From positions 28,830,001 through 28,894,000 of the forward strand of contig CM059427.1 of NCBI GenBank assembly GCA_030390025.1: a stretch of 64,000 nucleotides of DNA. Direction: 5' to 3'. Of the stretch, positions 3,025 through 64,000 are shown piece by piece (within the stretch, counting starts at the first letter, position 1; each line of letters opens with the position of its first letter). The position numbers and the translations under genes were made by a program. The DNA is from Squalus acanthias (taxonomy: Eukaryota). The notes beneath the pieces are model-generated. The model saw only the letters and a list, made by a program, of their open reading frames with translations. It was not told the DNA's origin and did no database searches.

Positions 3025-3785
3025 GGGCCAAAAATTCGGCCCTTCCCGGGTGAGTACGCACTGTGTACTCACCCGTAAGGCGTCCTGAAGTGCTGGTTTC
3101 CTGCATGCACTGCGCATGCACGGGAAACTGTAACTTCCGGTCTGGTGAAGGGGGCGGTTCATAGGTGAACCGCGTGCGTGGTAGAGGCTGCGCGCACGCA
3201 GCAAACTTAGTTTTTTTTTCAGGTTTCTACGGGAGGGTAAGTATTGAAGAACCTACGCTTTTAAAAAGGAGGCGCAGGGACCCGTTTTCAACAAGGTAAG
3301 TGGTTAATTAAGTATAATTTAAAAATTTTCTCAACAGGTTTATCTTTTTTAGATACTTTAAAGAAAGGTAAGTTTATTTTTAGCACTGTTAAAAAGTATT
3401 TTAATTTTTTCAAAAATTAAAATTTTTGTTTAAAGTAGTTAATTTATTTAACTTAGTTATTTTATAAATGTGATGGTTTTTTAAAAATTTATTTTAAGTT
3501 TAGCTGTTCTTTTGGGGCCGATTTCAATTCATAGATTTGACAGGTCCTGTCAAATCTATGAATGAAAGATGGTCTGCTGCCATTGGCTCTCCATGGCCCA
3601 CGTGATCCCAGGGGACGCATCGCACTAACTACGCCCCTGGGACACACAAGCACTGTGCGCTGGCACTTGGAGCAGGCCCAGGAGCTGAAGTTCCCGTGGG
3701 CCCAGAGGTCAACGGCAGGCGCAGTAGGTAAGTGCGCGCGCGATCCTTACCCCCGCGGCAAGCCGGAGAGGCAAATTTCAGGGCC
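3025..3785. mobile_element. Harbinger-like MITE (family H2) with 3-bp TSD
   Basis: Imperfect TIRs gggccaaaaattc / aaatttcagggcc; flanked by atc at 3022-3024 and 3786-3788; internal hairpins; no ORF. Confidence 0.7.
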
Positions 3786-4123: not shown

Positions 4124-5618
4124 ACAGAACTAGCTGCGCCTCTAGCCAAACTGTTCCAGTACAGCTACAACACCTGCATCTATCCGACAATGCGGAAAAC
4201 TGCCCAGGTTTGTTCTGTCCACAAAAAGCAGGACAAATCCAACCTGGCCAATTACCGCCCCATCAGTCTACTCTCAATCATCAGCAAAGTGATGGAAGGT
4301 GTCATCGACAGCACTTGTTCACCAATAACCTGCTCACTGATGCCCAGTTTGGGTTCCACCAAGACCACTCGGCTCCCGACCTCATTACAGCCTTGGTCCA
4401 AACATGGACAAAGGAGCTGAATTCCAGAGGTGAGGTGAGAGTGACTGCTCTTGACATCAAGGCAGCATTTGACAGAGTGTGGCATCAAGGAGCCAGAGTA
4501 AAACTGAAGTCAATGGGAATCGGGGGGAAAACGCTCCACTGGCTGGAGTCATACCTAGCACAAAGGAAGATGGTTGTGGTGGTTGAATGGTCAATCACCA
4601 CAGCCCCAGGACATCGCTGCAGGAGTTCCTCAGGGCAGTGTCCTCGGCCCAACCATCTTCAGCTGCTTCATCAATGACCTTCCCTCCAATATAAGGTCAG
4701 AAATGGGGATGTTCCCTGATGAGTGCAGTGTTCAGCACCATTCACAACTCCTCAGATAATGAAGCAGTCCATGCCCGCATGCAACAAGACCTGGACGACG
4801 TTCAGGCTTGGGCTGATAAGTGGCAGGTAACATTCGCGCCACAGAAGTGCCAGCCAATGACTATCTCCAACAAGCGGAAGTCTAACCACCTCCCCTTGAC
4901 ATTCAACGGCATTACCATCGCCGAATCCCCCACCATCAACATCCTGGGGGGGGGTCACCATTGACCAGAAACTGAACTGGACCAGCCACATAAATACTGT
5001 GGCAACAAGAGCAGGTCAGAGGTTAGGTATTCTGCAGCGAGTGTCTCACCTCCTGACTCCCCAAAGCCTTCCACCATCTACAAGGCACAAGTAAGGAGTG
5101 TGATGGAATACTCTCCACTTGCCTGGATGAGTGCAGCTCCAACAACACAAGAAGCTCGACACCATCCAGGACAAAGCAGCCCGCTTGATTGGCACGCCAT
5201 CCACCACCTTAAACATTCACTCCCTCCACCACCGGCGTACTGTGGCTGCAGTGTACACCATCTACAAGATGCACTGTAGCAACTCGCCAAGGCTTCTTCG
5301 GCAGCACCTCTCAAACCTGCGACCTCTTCCACCTAGAAGGACAAGGGCAGCAGGCGCATGGGAACACCACCACCTCCAAGATTCCCATCAAGTCACACAC
5401 CATCCTGACTTAGAAGTATATCGCCGATCCTTCATCGTCGCTGGGTCAAAATCCTGGAACTCCCTACCTAACAGCACTGTGGGAGTACCTTCACCACACG
5501 GACTGCAGTGGTTCAAGGCGGCGGCTCACCACCGCCTTCTCAAGGGCAATTAGGGATGGGCAATAAATGCTGGCCTTGCCAGCGACGCCCACATCCCACA
5601 AACGAATATTTAAAAAAA
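4124..5618 (+). mobile_element. CR1-group LINE family B, 5'-truncated RT with 3' tail
   Basis: NYRPISLLSIISKVME, ALDIKAAFDRVWH and [10 protein letters not shown]; ends gggcaataaatgctggccttgccagcgacgcccacatccc plus an A tail; frameshifted. Confidence 0.9.
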
Positions 5619-8245: not shown

Positions 8246-8784
8246 CTAAATGCAAAATTAAAATACCTGTGTTACCTGCATTTTACTTGAATAATTTAAT
8301 AAAGTAAAACTGTTTTTATATTCATCTTTGGCTGTGAGCTACTGTACCGAGTCTCATATAGCTGGCAGCCACATAAAAAAAAGAATCATAGGTTTATTTT
8401 GAAGACTTGCAGTCAGAAATATCAGTTTTTAAAATGTGTCTTTCTAATTATCACCAATCTTCTTAAGGTCTGTAAAAGTGCTGCTCCAACAACAATGTAA
8501 TTTGGTGGTGACATCATAACTCAATGTCATGACATCATGCACACACACTGCTCTTTTCTAGTGTCATCATGGTGTTACTACTCCACGCAAACACACTGGC
8601 CAAAATGTCACAACCAGCCTGTGGTTTGCTTAGAATGCCATACTACAACAGTGCAGCCAGTTTACAGGAATGCTGTAATAAAAGGAAATGAGCACCGCAG
8701 TTACCTCACATTGCCAATACCTTGGCTGCAATGTAAACGCAGTTTAAGTCATTACTAGCTTCCCCTGATCATTTAGAAGGCAAA

Positions 8785-9150
8785 TACGGATGTGGTACTG
8801 AGTCAGCCGAGGAAGGTCCCAGGTTTAATTCCTGGTCTGTGCAGAGTTGACTGATATCAGGCAAAAGAGCAATAAAGGATCTACAACTGGCATCAGCAAC
8901 CCCAGGTGGGGAGCAGCACCTTGCATTTATATAGCGCCCTTAACACAGAAAAACACTTCAAGGTGCTTTGAAGAAGAGGAAGGAAAACATTGGAAAAGAT
9001 AGGGGAATGGACAAAAACAAAATCCAGATTGCTATGCATTGCCCCCTGCTGGGAAGTACAGCTGTGAGGTCCCTGATGGTCAAATAGCTGACCATTACTC
9101 ACTGTCTAGACTTGCACATTAAGAATGGCCACATGTGCATTATAGCAGAG
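8785..9150 (+). mobile_element. Unclassified tRNA-type SINE with an L2-tail fragment inserted at about 8915-9000
   Basis: B-box-like caggtttaattcctggtctgtgc; internal ttgcatttatatagcgccc L2-type tail. Confidence 0.45.
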
Positions 9151-12593: not shown

Positions 12594-13513
12594 CTAACAC
12601 AAAAAAAAAAAAAAAAATTGTACTTACAAATAAAGTTTGATAGCCTCTTAATTAATGGGATTTCAAAATAATATATGCCAGCACACACTTCTTTCAGGGC
12701 TCCAAATAAATCTTTTTAAAAGAACAAACCAACCTCAATTACACTATCCATGGGAAGCACAAAGGTTTTTGAAAGGTGTACAATACACGCTGAAAGGCAT
12801 AAGATGAGATATCTTGTTGAGACTTACTGCCTATCAGTGTTACTTGCTAACAGCGAAGGCAAAGTCCCAAGCCCTCTTACTGAAGGACCACTCTCAGGAA
12901 TGCTCCCACGCATTTGCACCATGGAGAGATGGAATGTGGATCTGATCCTGAGATTTAGCAAGCAATGACTTATATCACATCACTGTGAGAAGTTTATAAG
13001 TGGAAGTCAAGCAAGTCCACACAAAAAGAACAAAAAAAAAGAGGTACTGCAAGACCAAAGTTCTACTAAAAAAAAAAATTGTATAGCTTAATTAAGTCTC
13101 CTTTCACTTGCAGGATGGATGGTGAATTGGTCCAACTTCAAGCAGCATTCCCTTGCAAGAGGAAGAGTGGAAACAGCACTGAATCCTAGCTAGGCAGGCT
13201 GTGAATTGAAGTCCAGAAATGCATGGAGCATCATGAAGTCTGCCAATGGCCACAGAAGGAAGGTGGGCCAAAAGTAGCTCCCAAGCAGTATTATGAGAAC
13301 CACTGCTATCTACTACTATGTCAAAACTAGAGAAACGTGTTACGTGGTCACAAGATGGATATGGATGAGGAAGGCTATTCAAATCAATCCCAACTCATCT
13401 ATCTAGAAAGAACCCATAGTCTAATGTCCTACTGTTCAGGTTTAATTTGAAGTAGTCTTCTAAATTTACCTTTTCTATACCATTTACTATCTTATCTACC
13501 TCTAGGAGATCCC

Positions 13514-13616
13514 ACTTCTGACGAAAGGTCTTCGACCTGAAATGTTAACTCTGTTTCTCTCTCCACGGATGCTGCCTGGCCTGCTGAGTTTTTCCAGCGT
13601 TTTCTGTTGTTATTTC
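13514..13616 (+). mobile_element. PLE-derived short insert (family A) with hammerhead core, 9-bp TSD
   Basis: TSD ggagatccc at 13505-13513 and 13617-13625; CTGACGA-a-aggtc-ttc-gacct-GAAATGTTAAC; inserted in an old CR1 remnant. Confidence 0.8.
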
Positions 13617-16600
13617 GGAGATCCCCTCTTGGTTGTCTTCTTTCAAGACTGAAATGCCCAAGTTTCTCCAATCTTGTGGGTCTTCTCTGTGCTCAGTTAC
13701 CAGAACTGGACACAGCATTCAAAGTATGACCTGACCACACACTGTACAGTTTAAGCATACCTTCCTCCAATTCATAAGAACATAAGAAATAGGAGCAGGA
13801 GTAGGCCATTCGGACCATCGAGCCTGCTCCGCCATTCAATAAGATCATGGCTGATCTTCTACCTCAACTCCACTTTCCTGCACTATCCCCATATCCCTTA
13901 ATATCCAAAAATCTATCAATCTCTGACTTGAATACACTCAACGACTGAGCATCCACAGCCCTCTGGGGTAGAGAATTCTAAAGATTCACCACTCTCTGAG
14001 GGAAGAAATTTCTCCTCATCTCAGTCCTAAATGGCCGACCCCTTATTCTGAGACTGCGATCCCTGGTCCTAGACTCCCCAGCCAGGGGAAACATCCTCCC
14101 TGCATCTACCCTGTCAAGCCCTGTAAGAATTTTGTATGTTTCAATGAGATCACCTCTCATTCTTCTAAACTCCAGAGAATATAGGCCTTGTCTACTCAAG
14201 CTCTCCTCATAGGACAAACCCCCCCATCCCAGGAATCAGTCTGATGAACCTTCGTTGCACTGACTCTATGGCAAGTATATCCTTCCTTAGGTAAGGAGAC
14301 CAAAACTGTACACAATACTCCAGGTGTGGTCTCAATGCTGCCCTATATAATTGGAGTAAGACATCTTTATTCTTATACTCAAATCCTCTTGTAATAAAGG
14401 CCAACATACCATTTACTTCCTTAATTGCTTGCTGTACCTGCATGTTAACTTTGATTTGTGTACAAGGACACCCAGGTCCCTCTGAACAGCAACACTTCCC
14501 AATCTCCCACCATTTAAAAAATACTCTGCTTTTCTATTTTTCCCACCAAAGTGGATAACTTCGCATTTCTCCACATTATATTCCATTTGCCATGTTCTTG
14601 CCCACTCACTTAGCCTGTCTATCTCCCTTGACGCCTCTTTGCATCCTCCTCACAACTTACATTCACACCCAGCTTTGGTTGTATCAGCAGCAAAATTGGA
14701 TATATTACATTTGGTCCCCTCATCCAAATCATTGATATAGATTGTGAATAGCTGAGGCCCAAGCACTGAATCTTGCGATACCCCACCAGTTACAGCCTGC
14801 CAACCCGAAAATGACCTGTTTATTCCTACTCTCTGTTTTCTGTCCGTTAACCAATCCTCAATCCATGCTAGTATATTACCCCCAATCCCATGAGCCCTAA
14901 TTTTGTTTAATAACCTCTTGTGTGACACCTTATCGAATGCCTTCTGAAAATCCAAATACACCACATCCACTGGTTCCCCCTGATCTATTCTGCTAGTTAC
15001 AACCTCAAAAAACACTTAACAGATTCATCAAACATGATTTCCCTTTCATAAATCCGTGTTGACTCTGCCCAATCCTATTATTATTTTCTAAGTGCCCTGT
15101 TACCACGTCCTTAATAATAGATTCTAGCATTTTCCCCACTACTGATGTCAGGCTAACTGGTCTGTAGTTCCCCGTTTTCTCGCTCCCTCCTTTCTTAAAT
15201 AGTGGAGTTACATTTGCTATGTTCCAATCCGCAGGAACGTTCTAGAATCTATGGAATTTTGGAAAATGACAACCAATGCATTCACTATTTCTATAGCCAC
15301 CTCTTTCAAAACCCTAGGATGTTGGCCATCAGGTCCAGGGGATTTATCAGCTTTCAGTCCCATTAATTTCTCTAGTACTATTTTTTTTATACTAATATTC
15401 ATTTCTTTCAGTTTCTCACTCTCGCTAGACCCTTGGTTCTCCACTATTTCTGGGAAGTTTTTTGCGTCTTCCTCCGTGAAGACAGACACAAAGTATTTGT
15501 TTAATTTCTCTGCCATTTCCTTATTCCCCATTATAATTTCTCCTGTCTCAGCCTATAAGGGACTCACGTTTATCTGCTAATCTTTTCCTTTTTACATACA
15601 TATAGAAGCTTTTGCAGTCTGTTTTTATGTCTCTCACTAGTTTACTCTCATATTCTATTTTCCCTTTATCAATTTCTTGGTCCTCCTTTGCTGAATTCGA
15701 AAATCCTCCCAATCCTAAGGCTTACTGCTCTTTTTGGCAACATTATAAGCCTCTTCCTTTGATTTAATACTATCTTTAACTTCTCTTGTTAGCCACGGTT
15801 GGACCACTTTTCCTGTGGGGATTTTGTGCCTTAAAGGAATGTATATTTGTTGTAAATTATGTATTAATTCTTTAAATGCTAGCCATTGCTTCTCTACCGT
15901 CATACCTTTTAATGTAGTTTCCCAATCTACCTTAGCCAACTCGCCCCTCATACCTACATAGATTGCTTTGTTTAGATTAAAGACCCTAGTTTTGGATTGA
16001 ACTAAATCACTTTCAGACTCGATATAAAATTCTATCATATTATGGACACTCTTCCCTAAAGGCCCCTTTACTACAAGGTTATTAATTAACCCTTTCTCAT
16101 TGTACAATACTAGATCTAAAATAGCCTGTTCCCTAGTTAGTTCCTCAACATACTGATCGAGAAAACTATCTTGTATACATTCCATGAATTCATCCTCCAC
16201 ACTATTACTGCAAATTTGGTTTGCCCAGTCTATATGTAGATTAAAGGCCCCCATGATTACTGTATTACCCTTGTTACATGCGCCTCTAATTTCCCTGATT
16301 TATACTCTACAGCTACTGTTTGGGGTCTATAAACAACTCCCACCAATGTTTTCTGCCCCTTGCTGTTTTTTTAGCTCACCCAAACTGATTCTACTTCTTG
16401 ATTTTTGGAGCTAAGATCCTTTCTCTCTACTATCTTTATCCCATCCTTTATCATGGCTACCCCTCCTCCTTTTCCATTTTGCCTATCTCTTCTAAAAGTT
16501 AAGTATCCTAGAATATTTAGTTCCCAACCTTGGCCACATTGCAACCATGTCTCTGTAATGGCTATTAGATCACACCTATTAATTTCTATCTGCGCTATTA

Positions 16601-31654: not shown

Positions 31655-32605
31655 GAGGGAGTGCAAGGAGAGAGAGAGATCTGGGGGATAGCAAAATACT
31701 GCAGATGCTGGAAATCCGAAATAACAACAGAAAACGCTGGAAAAACTCAGCAGGCCAGACAACATCCGTGGAGAGAGAAAGAGAGTTAACGTTTCAGGTC
31801 GAAACCCTTCGTCGTTCCGACGAAGGGTTTCGACCTGAAACGTTAACTCTCTTTCTCTCTCCACGGATGTTGTCTGGCCTGCTGAGTTTTTCCAGCGTTT
31901 TCTGTTGTTATTTGAGAGATCTGGGGGTGTTTGTACACAAATCTTTGAAGGTGGCAGGACAGGTTAACAAAGCAGTTAATAAAGCATATGGGATTCTGGG
32001 CTTTATAAGTCGAGGCATAGTGTACAAAAGCCCGGAAGTTATGCTAAACCTATATAAAACACTAGTTCGGCCCCAGCTGGAGTAGTGTGTCCAACTCTGG
32101 GCACCACACTTTAGGAAGGACGTGATGGCTTTGGAGAGGATACAGAAGAGATTTACTAGAATGGTTGTTCTCCTTAAAAGCAGGGAAGGCTATGAGGAGA
32201 TTTGATAGAGGTGTTTAAAATCATGAAGGGTTTAGATTGAGTAAATAAAGAGAAACCGTTTCCAATGGTTGAAGAGTCGATAACGAGAGGGCACAGACAT
32301 GAGGTGAGCGGCAAAAGAACCAGAGGCCACACAAGGAAAAAAAAAATTTACGCAACGAGTGGTTTGGATTTGGAATGAACTGCCCGATAGGGTGGTGGAT
32401 ACAGATTCAATAGTAGCCTTCAAAAGGGAATTGGATAAATACTTGAATGCTAAAAAATTGCAGGGATATGGGGAAAGAATTTGGGGGGGGGGGGGGTGAC
32501 TGGTAGAGTGGAACTAACTGGATTGCTCTTCGAAAGAGCAGACATAGACACAGACTCAAAGGGCCGAATGGATTCCTTCTGTGCTGTACTATTCTGTGAT
32601 TCTAA
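31655..32605 (+). mobile_element. CR1 3' fragment interrupted by a palindromic PLE-derived insert
   Basis: RDLGVFVHKSLKVAGQV...LYKTLVRPQLE; attctgtgattcta tail. Confidence 0.85.
31688..31913. mobile_element. PLE-derived inverted dimer (family A), 96-bp perfect arms, 14-bp TSD
   Basis: Arms 31719-31814 and 31818-31913, loop ttc; TSD gagagatctggggg at 31674-31687 and 31914-31927. Confidence 0.88.
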
Positions 32606-48936: not shown

Positions 48937-49198
48937 TTTTTATCTTTCCTGCCTCTTACATAAGCACAGCATGTTCTTTCAACTCCTTCCTCCCCTCCTA
49001 AACCCCCCCCCCCCCCCCCGTCTCTGCACCTGCTTAATATTTGTTACATCTCCAGCTTTTTCCAGTTCTGATGAAGGGTCCCAGACCTGAAACGTTAACT
49101 CTGTTTCTCTCTCCACGGATGCTGCCTGGCCTACTGAGTATTTCCAGCATTTTCTGTTGTGATTTCAGATTTCCAGCATCCGCAGTATTTTGCTATCG
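48937..49198 (+). mobile_element. PLE terminal fragment (family A) with intact hammerhead, 10-bp TSD
   Basis: TSD tacttgatac at 48927-48936 and 49199-49208; 3' part homologous to 13514-13616 and 31688-31913. Confidence 0.8.
49064..49100 (+). ncRNA. Minimal type-I hammerhead ribozyme motif
   Basis: agtt-CTGATGA-a-gggtc-cca-gacct-GAA-ACGT-T-aact: both cores intact, stem I agtt/aact, palindromic ACGU. Confidence 0.78.
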
Positions 49199-49314
49199 TA
49201 CTTGATACCTTAATGTTACAATAAAATGTTACAATATCTAATTAATCAACTATCAACCCACAGGTGCAAAACCTCACTGGATCAACAACCCCACAATGCA
49301 TTCCACAAATTTGC

Positions 49315-51059: not shown

Positions 51060-51811
51060 AGCCCTGAAATCGCGGTCTCCGTGAAGGCGAAGCGTATGCC
51101 GTCGTAAGCCTTGTAAAAAGGCCCCGCAAGTTCCGGGTTTCTGAGCATGCGCGAAAACACCGAACTTGCGAACTGGCCTGCGACCCAATCGCTGGCGCAG
51201 AGTTGGGCGATTTGCCCAACTACTGCTCAGCAAATGCCCACGAAACCCTTATGTCTGGTAAAAGCAGGCGTAGGTCCTGCTTTTGCCAGCGTAGGGCCTG
51301 CTTTTGCCAGCATAAGGCTTAATATAAATGTTAAATTAAAATTAAAAAAATTAAGAAAAACACAAACACTTAAAATTAGTTTATGTAAATTTTGGCCCGG
51401 ATTAAAATGCTTAAAATTATTTTTCAAAAAATTAAATTTTTTATTTTAAATGCTTGATTAAAGGGACTTTTAATTAATTTTGAAAATGGGGACATTTATT
51501 TTTATTCCACTTGTGTAAATTATTTATTGATTTGGGGATTCCTCATATGCTTATGGGGATTCCCTTCGTAAATGGAATCCCCATAAGCATAATAGGAATC
51601 CTGCTTTCTGATTGGAGTACCTGTCCTATGTGATCCCAGGGATGCTTCCAAACCGCTTGCGTCCCTGGGATCCATGGGCCTTTACGCAGGCATACGCCTG
51701 CAGGCCCAGGACCCGAAGCCTGGGAACCAGCAGGTATGTTCGTATTTTTATTTTTTTTTTCGGGTCAGAGGTGTGCTCCGCAGGTATGCCTCCAACCGCA
51801 AATTTCGGCCC
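51060..51811. mobile_element. Harbinger-like MITE related to 3025-3785
   Basis: TIRs gccctgaaatcgcgg / ccgcaaatttcggccc; same order of hairpins and gtgatcccaggg..ccctggga as 3025-3785. Confidence 0.7.
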
Positions 51812-53459: not shown

Positions 53460-56400
53460 CGGGTGCTTCTAAACAGAGTACTAAGGTTGGGAATTTGGAG
53501 AGAGTGGGCATTCAAAGCAGAGGGGGAAGGAGGAGAGAGTGAAAGGAGCGGCCGGAGATAAAGATAGGCCCGAGAGCCTGGAGGGAGCACGAGCATCAGG
53601 GAGCAAGGTAAATGACGTCAGCACAAGGGAAGGAGTGGAAAAGAAAGAAAAAAATTGGTGAGTAGCTGGTGAAGGATGTCACTGAGCGGCTGCAGGACAT
53701 TCGGAGGGCGGAGGGTAAACAGCCAGAGGTCATGACATAGGTAGAAAGCGGGATGAGGTCCTGCAGGTAATTTTAGGGAGCTAGGAAAGAGATTAAAAAG
53801 CAGGACCTCAAAGGTAGTAATCACGAGCAAGTGAGTATAGAAATAGGAGGAAAGAGCAGATGAATGTGTGGTTAGAGAGATGGTGCAGGAGGGAGGGCTT
53901 TAGATTCCTGGGACATTGGGACTGGTTCTGGGGGAGGTGGGACCTGTACAGGCTGGACAAGTTGCACCTCAACAGAGCCAGGACCAATATCCTCGCCAGG
54001 GGGAGAAGAGCGGTTGCTAGTGATGTTGGGGAGGGTTTAAACTAATTTAGCAGGGGGCTGGGCACCTGGATGTAGCATTAGAAAGGAGAAACATGGTGCA
54101 CAAAGGATTGGGGAGATAGCACTAGAGTAAGAAATAGTACTGTATTAGGTGGGGTCAGACTAAGAATACAAGGAAGTTTAAGATAGGTTTACAGTGCATG
54201 CGTGTAAACACATGAAGCGTGGTAAATAAGGTTGGTGAGCTGCAGGCGCAAACAGCCAATAGCCACATGGAAATATGATGTTGTGGCGATAACAGAGACC
54301 TGGTTCAAAAAAGGGCAGGATTGGGTTTTAAATATTCCTGGTTAGAAGGTGTTCAGTAAAAATAGGGAATGAAAAAAAGGAGGTGGGGTGGCAGTATTGA
54401 TTAAGGAGAATATTAGTGTTGGAGAGAGAGGATGTTCTGGAGGGGTCAAGGACAGAATCTATTTGGTTAGAGTTAAGAAACAATAGAGGTGCCATTACAC
54501 TACTAGGTGTATTCTATAAGCCACCAACTAGTGGGAAGGATATAGAGGAGCAAATTTGCAGGGAAATTACAGAGAGGTGCAAGAACTATAGAGTAGTTAT
54601 AATGGGGGACTTCAATTATCCTAATATAGACTGGGATAGTAATAGTGTAAAGAGCAGAGAAGGGGAAGAATTTCTGAAGTGTGTTCAGGAGAACTTTCTT
54701 GATCAGTACGTTTCCGGCCCAACAAGGAAGGATGCATTGCTGGATCTGGTTCTGGGGAATGAGGTCGGTCAAGTGGAGCAAGTATCAGTAGAGGAACATT
54801 TAGGGAACAGTGATCATAGTATCATAAGGTTGTATTAGCAATGGAAAAGGACATGGGGCAATCTAGAGTAAAAAATACTTCATTTGAGGAGGGCCAATTT
54901 CAGTGGGTTGAGAACGGATCTGGCCCGGTTAAATTGGAATCAAAGATTGGCAGGCAAAACTGTAATCGAACAAGGGGCTACCTTTAAAGAGGAGATGGTT
55001 TGGATACAGTCGAGGTACATTCCCATGAGGGGGAAAGCTAGGGAAACCAAAGCCAGAGCTCCCTGGATGATGAAAGAGATAGAGAGTAAGATGAAGCAGA
55101 AAAAGGGGGCATACGAGAGATGTCAGGTTGAGAATACAAGAACCAGGCTGAATATAGAAAGTTCAGAGGGGAAGTGAAAAAGGAATTAAGAGGGAGTATG
55201 AGAATAGACTGGCAGCTAACACAGGAGGGAATCCAAAAGTCTTCTATAGGCGTATAAATAATAAACGGGTAGTAAGAGGAGGGGTGGGGCCGATTAGGGA
55301 CCAAAAAGGAGACCAACGCATGGAGGCAGAGGGCATGGCTGAGGTACTATATGAAACTTTGCATCTGTCTTCACCAAGGGAGAAAGATGCTGCCAAAGTC
55401 AAAGTGAGAGGAGGTAGTTGAGATACTGGATGGGATAAAAATTGATAAAGGAGGTACTAGAAAGACTGGCTGTACTTAAATTGGATAATTCACCTGGACT
55501 GGATGGGATGCATCCTAGGATGCTGAGGGAGGTAAGGGTGGAAATTGCAGAGGTACTGACCATAATCTTCCAATCCTCCTTAGATACAGGGGTGGTGCCA
55601 GAGGACTGGAGAATTGCAAATGTTACACCCTTGTTCAAAAAAAGGTGCAAGGATAAACCCAGCAACTACAGAGCAGTCAGTTTAAGCTCGGTAGTGGGTA
55701 AGTTTTTAGAAATAATAATCTGGGACAAAATTAACAGTCACTTGAACAAGTGTGGATTAATTAAGCCAGCACGAATTTGTCAAAGGCAAATCGTGTTTAA
55801 CGAACGTGATTGAGTTTTTTGATGAAGTAAGAGAGGGTTGATGAGGGCAATGCGGTTGATGTGGCGCACATGGACTTCCAAAAGGCGTTTGATAAAGTGC
55901 CACATAATAGGCTTGCCAGCAAAGTTGAAGACCATGGAATAAAGGACAGTGACAGCATGGATACGAAATTGGCTAACTGACAGGAAACTGAGTAGTAGTG
56001 AACGGTTGTTTTTCGGACTGGAGGAAGGTATACAGTGGTGTTCTCCAGGGGTCGGTACTAGGACCACTGCTTTTCTTGATACATATTAGTGACTTGGACT
56101 TGGGTGTACAGGGCACAATTTCAAAATGTGCAGATGACACAAAACTTGGAAGTATAGTGAACAGTGAGGAGAATAGTGATAGACTTCAAGAGGACAGAGA
56201 CAGGCTGGTGGAATGGGCAGACATGTGGCTGATGAAATTTAATGCAGAGAAATGCGAAGTGATATATTTTGGTAGGAAGAACGAGGAGAGGTAATATAAA
56301 CTGAAGGGTAAAATTCTAAAGGGGGTGCAGAAACAGAGAGACCTGGGGGTATATGTGCACAAATCGTTGAAGGTGGCAGGGCAGGTTGAGAAAGCGGTTA

Positions 56401-57032
56401 AAAAAGCTTACGGGATCATAATTACAGGTGGAGAATACAAAAGCAAGATAGTTATGAACAACCTTTATAAAACAGTGGTTCGGCCTCAACTGGAGTATTG
56501 TGTCCAATTCTGGGCACCGCACTTTAGGAAGGATGTGAAAGCCTTTGAGAGGGTGCAGAAAAGATTTACAAGAATGGTTCCAGGGATGAGGGACTTCAGT
56601 TACGTGGACAGACTGGAGAAGCTGGGGTTGTTCTCTTTAGAGCAGAGAAGGTTGGGAGGAGATTTAATAGAGGTGTTCAAAATCATGAGGGGTCTAGACA
56701 GAGTAGATAGAGAGAAACTGTTCCCATTGGCGGAAGGGTCGAGAAACAGAGGACACAGATTTAAGGTGATTGGCAGAAGAACCAAATGAGACATGAGGAA
56801 AAACGTACGCAGTAAGTGGTTATGATCTGAAATGCACTGCCTGAAAGGGTGGTGGAGGCAGATTCCATTGTGGCTTTCAAAAGGGAATTGGATAAGTACC
56901 TGAAGGAAAAAATTTGGAGGGCTACAGGGAAAGGGCGGGGGAGTGGGACTAGCTGATGTGCTTTTGCAGAGAGCTGGCACGGGCTCGACGGGCCGAATGG
57001 CCCCCTTCTGTGCTGTAACCATTCTATGATTC
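53460..57032 (+). mobile_element. CR1 LINE, 5'UTR to tail, ORF1 largely deleted, ORF2 frameshifted
   Basis: NVWLERWCRREGFRFLGHW; GVFYKPP..MGDFN..SDHSII; DFQKAFDKVPH; ccattctatgattc tail. Confidence 0.9.
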
Positions 57033-62478: not shown

Positions 62479-62814
62479 AAAGTCCTAAAGTTCTATTGCG
62501 CTCCAGCATAAATCCAATTTGTCTCGCTCATCTTGATCACCATCCTTGCTGCCCTTTACCGTTTTTGTTTGCAACTATTTATCAAAACCCATTTTCACAA
62601 CTGCATCCCTTTCCTCAGCACCTGCCTCCAGCTTTGACTTATCCCATGTGGATTTCAGCTGAAGTTTCATGCTTCCTCTTTCGGATCCATTTGTGATCAC
62701 CAGTGTAGCCTGGATATTTAATTTACCTTTCAGCGTTTCACACAATCCACTCTCTCTCTCTCTTTCCATGCGTCACACATACATGCTTACTCTAGCCCCC
62801 TCTCTTCAGCAGCA

Positions 62815-63604: not shown

Positions 63605-64000
63605 GCCCTCTGATCTCTTCTCTCAAACTTTTCATCTGAGAACTGCCACTGCAATAACAAGCAGTCTGTGTTTGTCCACTCTCCTTACTCACTCTGATCT
63701 ATCTCCTTCTGAACCTGTAGCTCTCCATTCTCTCAATTTCAACTCTAACACTATCAAATTTGCTGACAAGGAGGTGTTGTTGTCATATGACAGAATGCCC
63801 TCTATAGAGTTGAGATCCAATACCAACTATCTGACGCTTCCTCTTATTCCCTTGGAACATGACCCCACCAAACCATAATCTCCCAGGCTGTCATCTTAAC
63901 TATTCAGGAGATCTTTCCCCTAACCACCTTCAATCTTGTAGTTTCCCAACCCTTAACAGCCGGTTTCTACCTCCTCTCCAAGATACACAAATAAGACTGT
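63605..64000 (+). mobile_element. Decayed Penelope-like element reverse transcriptase, running off the window end
   Basis: DLSPSEPVALHSL..IKFADK (PLE IKPADKG), LEHDPT, and gccggtttctacctcctctccaagatacacaaa = AGFYLLSKIHK (PLE FY-LPKIHK motif). Confidence 0.8.

Follow-up and report, generated by a model that had tools for sequence, protein, structure and literature searches.

In the window, i.e. the whole 64,000-nucleotide stretch analysed here, a short insertion is found between two copies of a 14-bp target-site duplication (TSD), Table 1. It consists of two arms that are exact reverse complements (96/96 positions) around a TTC centre. Both the 96-bp palindrome and the perfect TSD had been described in a sequence-only reading of the window, and both are real. 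The insertion interrupts an older LINE fragment, and when the flanks are rejoined they align across the site with a second LINE copy at 56320-56759 (70% over 452 columns, beginning 18 nt left of the duplication). We take the host LINE to be a CR1, as it had been labelled; Pfam shows APE and RT domains only. No host exon was found in the 17 of 45 long open frames that were scanned in the window, where the only domains are those of LINEs.

The insert is asymmetric. A 31-nt tail, overlooked in the earlier reading, is present on the left arm only, and in long copies of the family the tail sequence continues into an ORF. We number the element from +1, the A of CC-A-GTTC directly before the hammerhead. 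The tailed arm begins at +6 and the tailless arm at +2, and G31814 and the TTC centre together make up positions +2..+5 of the element in the right arm. The centre is thus not an untemplated loop. G31814 fits both arms, i.e. there is a 1-nt microhomology at the joint. The palindrome is two head-to-head leader copies of a Neptune/Nematis-type Penelope-like element (PLE), which agrees with its earlier identification as an inverted PLE pseudo-LTR structure. At the tailless ends of the insertion sites at 31914 and 13620, GAGATC is located within two bases of the start; other duplications, inspected by eye, show no apparent preference of this kind.

Table 1. Coordinates in the window of the focal insertion, its hammerhead motif and two further copies of the same family.
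Feature	Position	Strand	Basis or remark
Left TSD copy, 14 bp, in older LINE fragment	31674..31687	.	exact repeat at 31914-31927
Penelope tail, 31 nt, element ~+103..+134, left arm only	31688..31718	-	matches 49169-49197 and long copies L102-L129
Left (tailed) arm, leader from +6; ORF start codon at 31765-31763	31719..31814	-	arm comparison
Head-to-head joint; GTTC = right arm +2..+5	31814..31817	+	sits at the commonest 5' end of the family
Right (tailless) arm, ends at element +102; ORF start codon at 31867-31869	31818..31913	+	arm comparison
Right TSD copy, 14 bp	31914..31927	.	exact repeat of 31674-31687
Minimal type I hammerhead motif, right arm	31814..31847	+	motif scan against the descriptor in the available text of PMC4209133
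Stem I of the motif	31814..31816 with 31845..31847	+	motif scan
Core box CCGACGA	31817..31823	+	motif scan
Stem II	31825..31836	+	motif scan
GAAA	31837..31840	+	motif scan
Single tailless arm of the same family, start ~+1, 9-bp duplication	13512..13619	+	sequence comparison
Single tailed arm of the same family, extends upstream beyond +1	49032..49200	+	sequence comparison

The ribozyme call was made by inspecting the motif against a published minimal descriptor. A whole hammerhead is found in the right arm only, with a cleavage site predicted from the motif after position 31844. Its core box has C for U at core position 4, and this CCGACGA box is a subfamily variant seen in 4 of 30 unselected copies. 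In the left arm the truncation falls within the first core box, so that C3, U4 and the stem I 5' strand are missing. A CUGA box mutated in both arms, as previously noted, is therefore right for the right arm (C at position 4) but not for the left, where the box is truncated and not mutated. An intact CUGANGA...GAAA..UH core with stems I and II is absent from both focal arms; the motif is found in family copies. According to the available text of PMC4209133, the focal motif shares with the type I hammerheads of metazoan PLEs the core boxes, a bulged base before stem II and the palindromic positions 15.2-16.2, and differs from them in the C at core position 4 and in a G-U instead of a G-C pair at the base of stem II. 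The same paper describes minimal hammerheads in PLE repeats as mostly solo, with opposite-strand pairs at 100-700 bp; unlike those pairs, the focal motif has a truncated partner, and the two are placed back to back in a hairpin.

Rfam gives no match in the window at the gathering level, and at E<=10 there is no hammerhead, just sub-threshold miRNA and other hairpin-shaped models, which we rejected as artefacts of the long stem. The RNA fold of the palindrome has an energy of -202.6 kcal/mol (z -28.6, none of 200 shuffles as good), and the entire hammerhead motif is predicted to be paired inside the 96-bp hairpin. Folded as monomers, the three hammerheads of the window are no better than shuffles (z +0.97, -0.26 and -1.43), as expected for minimal dimeric motifs. 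The hammerhead of the focal copy is predicted to be inert. Where transcribed, the thousands of near-perfect 200-bp hairpins of the family could feed double-stranded-RNA pathways.

The parent element can be read from longer copies. Upstream, the copies run into the final part of an ORF, which encodes RT motifs and a GIY-YIG domain as well as a CxxxxCxxC linker; downstream, they pass through the additional 31 nt into the beginning of this ORF, whose ATG is inside the arm. The arm is the leader of the element, i.e. the hammerhead, the start codon and the first codons. One copy (L070) has an open frame of 402 aa with the RT motifs, the CxxxxCxxC linker and GIY-YIG, and another (L117) has an ORF of >700 aa from the ATG inside the arm, with a Pfam RVT_1 match (E 7e-6) under the curated cut-off. 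Pfam gives no match at 1e-3 for the 402-aa piece and no endonuclease match; GIY-YIG was read from motifs in the translations of L070, L086 and L117. As judged from these translations, the parent is an endonuclease-bearing PLE with a single ORF (RT and C-terminal GIY-YIG). A CX2-5CxxC linker between RT and endonuclease marks the Neptune and Nematis clades in the available text of PMC8557442, and by this criterion the element is of the Neptune or Nematis type.

Pseudo-LTR partial tandems, with an upstream copy of the 3' region and the hammerhead, are present at 12 of 30 ORF-start loci. L117 (contig C17, ~51.08 Mb) is a young long copy with an upstream pseudo-LTR and a frame open to the end of the examined stretch. 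In L086 a 2.8-kb element copy is found inside a 67-bp tandem array (sense 5067-5477 and 8295-9001). The window itself contains an older relative of the same Penelope ORF at 62593-62689 and 63671-63999, 67-76% identical to L103.

The 3.7-Gb genome was searched with exact-match anchors. An exact 19-nt anchor occurs 59,408 times, and exact anchors downstream of the cleavage site give 3,929 head-to-head pairs; reversed-pattern controls give none. The gap between the downstream anchors, which is 70 if both arms reach +1, is 0-30 in 250 pairs, 31-61 in 2,182, 62-92 in 1,345 and 93-123 in 152. With exact inner anchors, 2,271 pairs have a gap of 8-38 and 619 a gap of 39-69. Thousands of pairs share the focal build, many with diverged arms. 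The count and mapping of axes across the genome, as the earlier reading had suggested, relate the axes to the hammerhead: 90% of the 3,929 pairs are joined near its 5' edge, and pairs joined further out occur too. The axis is thus non-random and clustered at the hammerhead, as proposed, but it is not at the cut site. The pile-up of joints, which single-arm copies share, is located ~30 nt 5' of the predicted cleavage site.

These positions bear on the idea that ribozyme cleavage makes the RNA end where the arms meet. The joints are within the hammerhead region, and in 2 of the 50 pairs listed the arms meet exactly at the cleavage site. However, the gap is 30 nt or less in just 250 of 3,929 pairs, and cleavage would strip the core from the arms, whereas the arms keep it. 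The accessible part of PMC11167929 adds, for another PLE, that no reads end at the cleavage site and that cleavage is unneeded. We regard this explanation as very improbable.

An assembly artefact or a later rearrangement of a single copy is hardly credible either. Short-read contigs do not confirm the locus: they are swamped by repeats there, and the depth of the unique flank is ~2, 0 and 0 in three samples. Against this stand the exact 14-bp duplication, the asymmetry of the tail and the existence of thousands of similarly built pairs, in many of which the arms have diverged. No empty-site joint was seen among 15 of 183 joints listed from the short-read contigs.

We analysed the anatomy of 51 pairs: the first 50 listed, all selected for both inner anchors and situated in the first 68 Mb of a single contig, and the focal one. 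In 50 of the 51 a tailed arm is combined with a tailless one (p 2e-14 against independent 50:50 use), and the remaining pair has a damaged tail. A clean duplication of at least 11 bp is present in 37 pairs; it measures 12-16 bp, with a mode of 14 (15/37). Tailless ends centre on +102 (22/37 at +99..+103) and tailed ends on ~+138. The joint could be scored in 42 pairs, nine of the 51 being too complex and dropped. The arms overlap by 0-4 nt in 35 joints, and 1-3 filler bases are found in seven. The tailless arm reaches further 5' in 25 pairs, by at least 3 nt in 24 of these, the tailed arm in 12, and the two are equal in five (p 0.047 on 37). No arm extends beyond position 0 in this set, which is gap-limited. 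A mobile palindrome of the Foldback or MITE type was considered and rejected, as the 51 pairs differ greatly in their centres and have asymmetric outer ends.

A further set of 105 arms, some seen from both sides, contains ~23 distinct inverted pairs. The exceptions to the pairing of one tailed with one tailless arm are L194/L195, in which both arms are tailed, and one or two pairs without any tail (L177, L174). The inner start site is where two of the inverted tailed arms end, at +97 and +101. Four apparent single copies (L077, L139, L120, L158) have a tiny inverted second arm of ~10-80 nt at their 5' joint; many single copies may be pairs that have lost an arm by trimming. In L081, L085 and others the joint contains a short templated insertion that copies arm sequence close by. 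Such joints resemble those of polymerase-theta end joining.

As a rule the two arms of a pair share a common source, as had been proposed: diagnostic sites are discordant in 8.7% of comparisons within pairs vs 34-38% between pairs, and 12 of the 51 pairs have no substitution between the arms. The variants named earlier (ctctttctc and gttgtctgg) are indeed in both focal arms, and the 13.5-kb and 49-kb copies lack them. They do not prove arm-to-arm copying, since both arms of another pair (L033) carry them too and are identical to the focal arms over the shared columns. A few pairs have arms of mixed subfamilies: L013 in the unselected set, and L088 and L090 among 14 loci (L087-L100) chosen by eye from listings. 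Different standard loop II variants are seen between the arms of L013, L088 and L090-L093, which suggests two templates or later conversion. Five other candidates (L008, L015, L019, L049, L087) rest on 1-3 nt beside the joint and were not counted.

The origin first proposed for the palindrome was fold-back synthesis at the ribozyme, where a cDNA or antisense RNA strand folds back on itself at the hammerhead, so that the second arm is copied from the first; the available text of PMC3846280 likewise proposes self-priming, with an antisense strand as template. Fold-back would give near-identical arms such as those of the 12 pairs without substitution, it explains the rarity of two tails, and the joints do have microhomology, some of them at the element's own short palindromes. 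However, a copy cannot exceed its template. Neither focal arm is a plain copy of the other, because +2..+5 is missing from the tailed arm and the tail is missing from the tailless arm. Fold-back of a tail-primed strand needs the tailed arm to reach furthest 5', but at the focal locus and in 25 of 42 pairs it is the tailless arm that does so, and the joints are ~30 nt off the cleavage site. Single copies that are tailless and flanked by a duplication of their own are frequent, and the arms of some pairs belong to different subfamilies. At the focal locus fold-back is already contradicted unless the centre was rearranged later. We consider it improbable; it may account for some of the 12 pairs in which the tailed arm is longer.

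The reading that we favour, and hold to be fairly probable, is that both target strands are primed at two known start sites of the element RNA, that both copies run off a fixed RNA 5' end, and that the copies are then end-joined. The target would be cut in a staggered manner, ~14 nt apart. Priming would use the outer start site (~+135) on one strand and the inner start site (~+102) on the second, as with the Poseidon protein in vitro. Both copies would extend to the 5' end of the RNA, probably a transcription start, and run off there; their source would usually be the same, possibly even a single RNA molecule with strand displacement. The cDNA ends would be trimmed and then joined. The hammerhead would be a passenger at the front of the RNA, and its cleavage would not set the axis. 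According to the available text of PMC11167929, the Poseidon protein cleaves and extends both strands, two internal starts bound the tail, and ribozyme cleavage is unneeded; start-site use is equal between the strands in that element of another clade, which does not itself predict that each pair has one arm of each kind.

A fixed 5' end is seen in copies of all kinds. Among 70,834 matches to the first half of the hammerhead, the similarity breaks before +3 in 4,967, before +2 in 6,867 and before +1 in 4,888. Samples of 30 contained eight point mutants that run on for the break before +2 and four for the break before +1. After removal of point mutants the loss is ~7% per base at the boundary vs ~0.27% upstream (30 loci), so copies stop at one RNA position ~25x above background. 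This sharp boundary at +1..+3 is common to palindromes and single copies. Independent short-read contigs have 173 loose ends exactly at +2 (L103 position 2262), although contigs cannot show RNA starts. In three putative RNA runs the depth step from leader to upstream sequence is 14-20-fold vs 4-fold in DNA, but summed contig depth is no measure of expression and this step was given no weight.

The boundary reads as an initiator-like CCAGTTC, and most subfamilies have an AT-rich block at ~-30, not clearly the focal one, which is without the TTAAA block. It reads equally well as a splice acceptor. The same double priming and joining could thus take place on an RNA whose 5' boundary is set by processing, either at a polypyrimidine-CAG splice acceptor or by trimming to a protein-bound hammerhead. 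All 26 copies that extend beyond +1 have a pyrimidine tract and CAG, and 12 of them a branch-like motif. In the Penelope of D. virilis an intron runs up to the 5' end of helix I (available text of PMC4209133), and transcription starts 46 nt before a 75-nt intron (PMC2377424, as far as its available text goes). Splicing, however, would add an upstream exon. A duplication of at least 9 bp abuts G+2 in 14 of 18 single copies (gap -4 to +2) and the upstream sequences are unrelated; therefore there is no shared upstream exon, and an RNA 5' end is favoured. The commonest start, moreover, retains the G of the AG, and no GT-AG joint ending at the boundary was found among 15 of 64 joints listed from the putative RNA contigs. 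We judge RNA processing to be unlikely. As far as the sequences tell, the boundary is probably an RNA 5' end, i.e. a transcription start; no clear case of a cap-derived extra G was seen among the copies at the boundary.

The one-each rule, the concordance of the arms and the lead of the tailless arm would all follow from a single RNA with strand displacement, and the tailed arms that stop at +97 and +101 have the geometry expected if two primers act on one RNA. The mixed-subfamily pairs would instead fit two RNAs, and the arms of L013, L088 and L090 argue against a strict single RNA. In a more specific version, put forward tentatively, a single RNA would serve both target strands in each event, with priming at two fixed sites; synthesis from the inner primer would go first and be displaced by that from the tail primer. 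The short run-off inserts would derive from linear, uncut RNA that begins immediately before the hammerhead, and the long partial-tandem copies from another template, e.g. hammerhead-cut circular RNA. On this version the joints would map the transcription start of the element to the base. None of the 12 ORF-bearing long copies starts at +1 and all 12 run past it, which has a chance of ~7% if about one in five stops there (an estimate) and is a weak hint of a second template.

The favoured mechanism resembles L1 twin priming, where both strands prime and an inverted 5' piece, a microhomology joint and a target duplication result. In L1, however, the two pieces do not overlap, whereas here both arms copy the same 96 nt, which needs strand displacement or a second RNA.

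The layout itself, an inverted pseudo-LTR with a tail, is already published, and the focal locus is one of thousands. Inverted pseudo-LTRs with head-to-head joints, a 31-bp tail at one end and target duplications are described for Pen2/Pen2a_Av in the available text of PMC3846280, and the scheme is given in that of PMC8557442. There too the pseudo-LTR contains the first codons and TATA-like and initiator-like motifs. Compared with Pen2/Pen2a_Av, the insertions here are leaders of only ~100-135 nt in thousands of copies, the duplications are of 12-16 bp instead of 9-10, and the joints argue against the self-priming model. PAc, a Poseidon element of Anolis studied by in vitro TPRT (PMC11167929), has a hammerhead beside the ORF start and two internal starts that bound the tail, as here, but is of a different clade, the shark-type element having the CX2-5CxxC linker. 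The pairing of one tailed with one tailless arm and run-off palindromes do not appear in the available text of that paper. In the open literature we found no paper on the focal Penelope-like family, on Penelope twin priming or on the one-each rule. The focal locus alone matters little. The family statistics bear on how PLEs acquire their tails and inverted termini. They connect the two start sites seen in vitro with the two target strands, speak against self-priming as published and yield a predicted RNA 5' end.

Non-LTR retrozymes (bioRxiv 10.64898/2026.07.22.740005) are likewise short, non-coding, hammerhead-bearing and PLE-derived. According to the accessible text they are head-to-tail tandem arrays, whereas the focal insertion is a head-to-head pair rebuilt at insertion, and we rejected this assignment since its hammerhead units are not head to tail. 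Elsewhere in the genome, on contig C1 (6988709-7059147), seven hammerhead copies are on the same strand, several of them ~1.7 kb apart; this cluster is a tandem array or a local duplication, possibly retrozyme-like. The window also contains two short imperfect palindromes unrelated to the Penelope family (3522-3567 and 51536-51601), each followed by similar sequence, which are perhaps another small repeat family.
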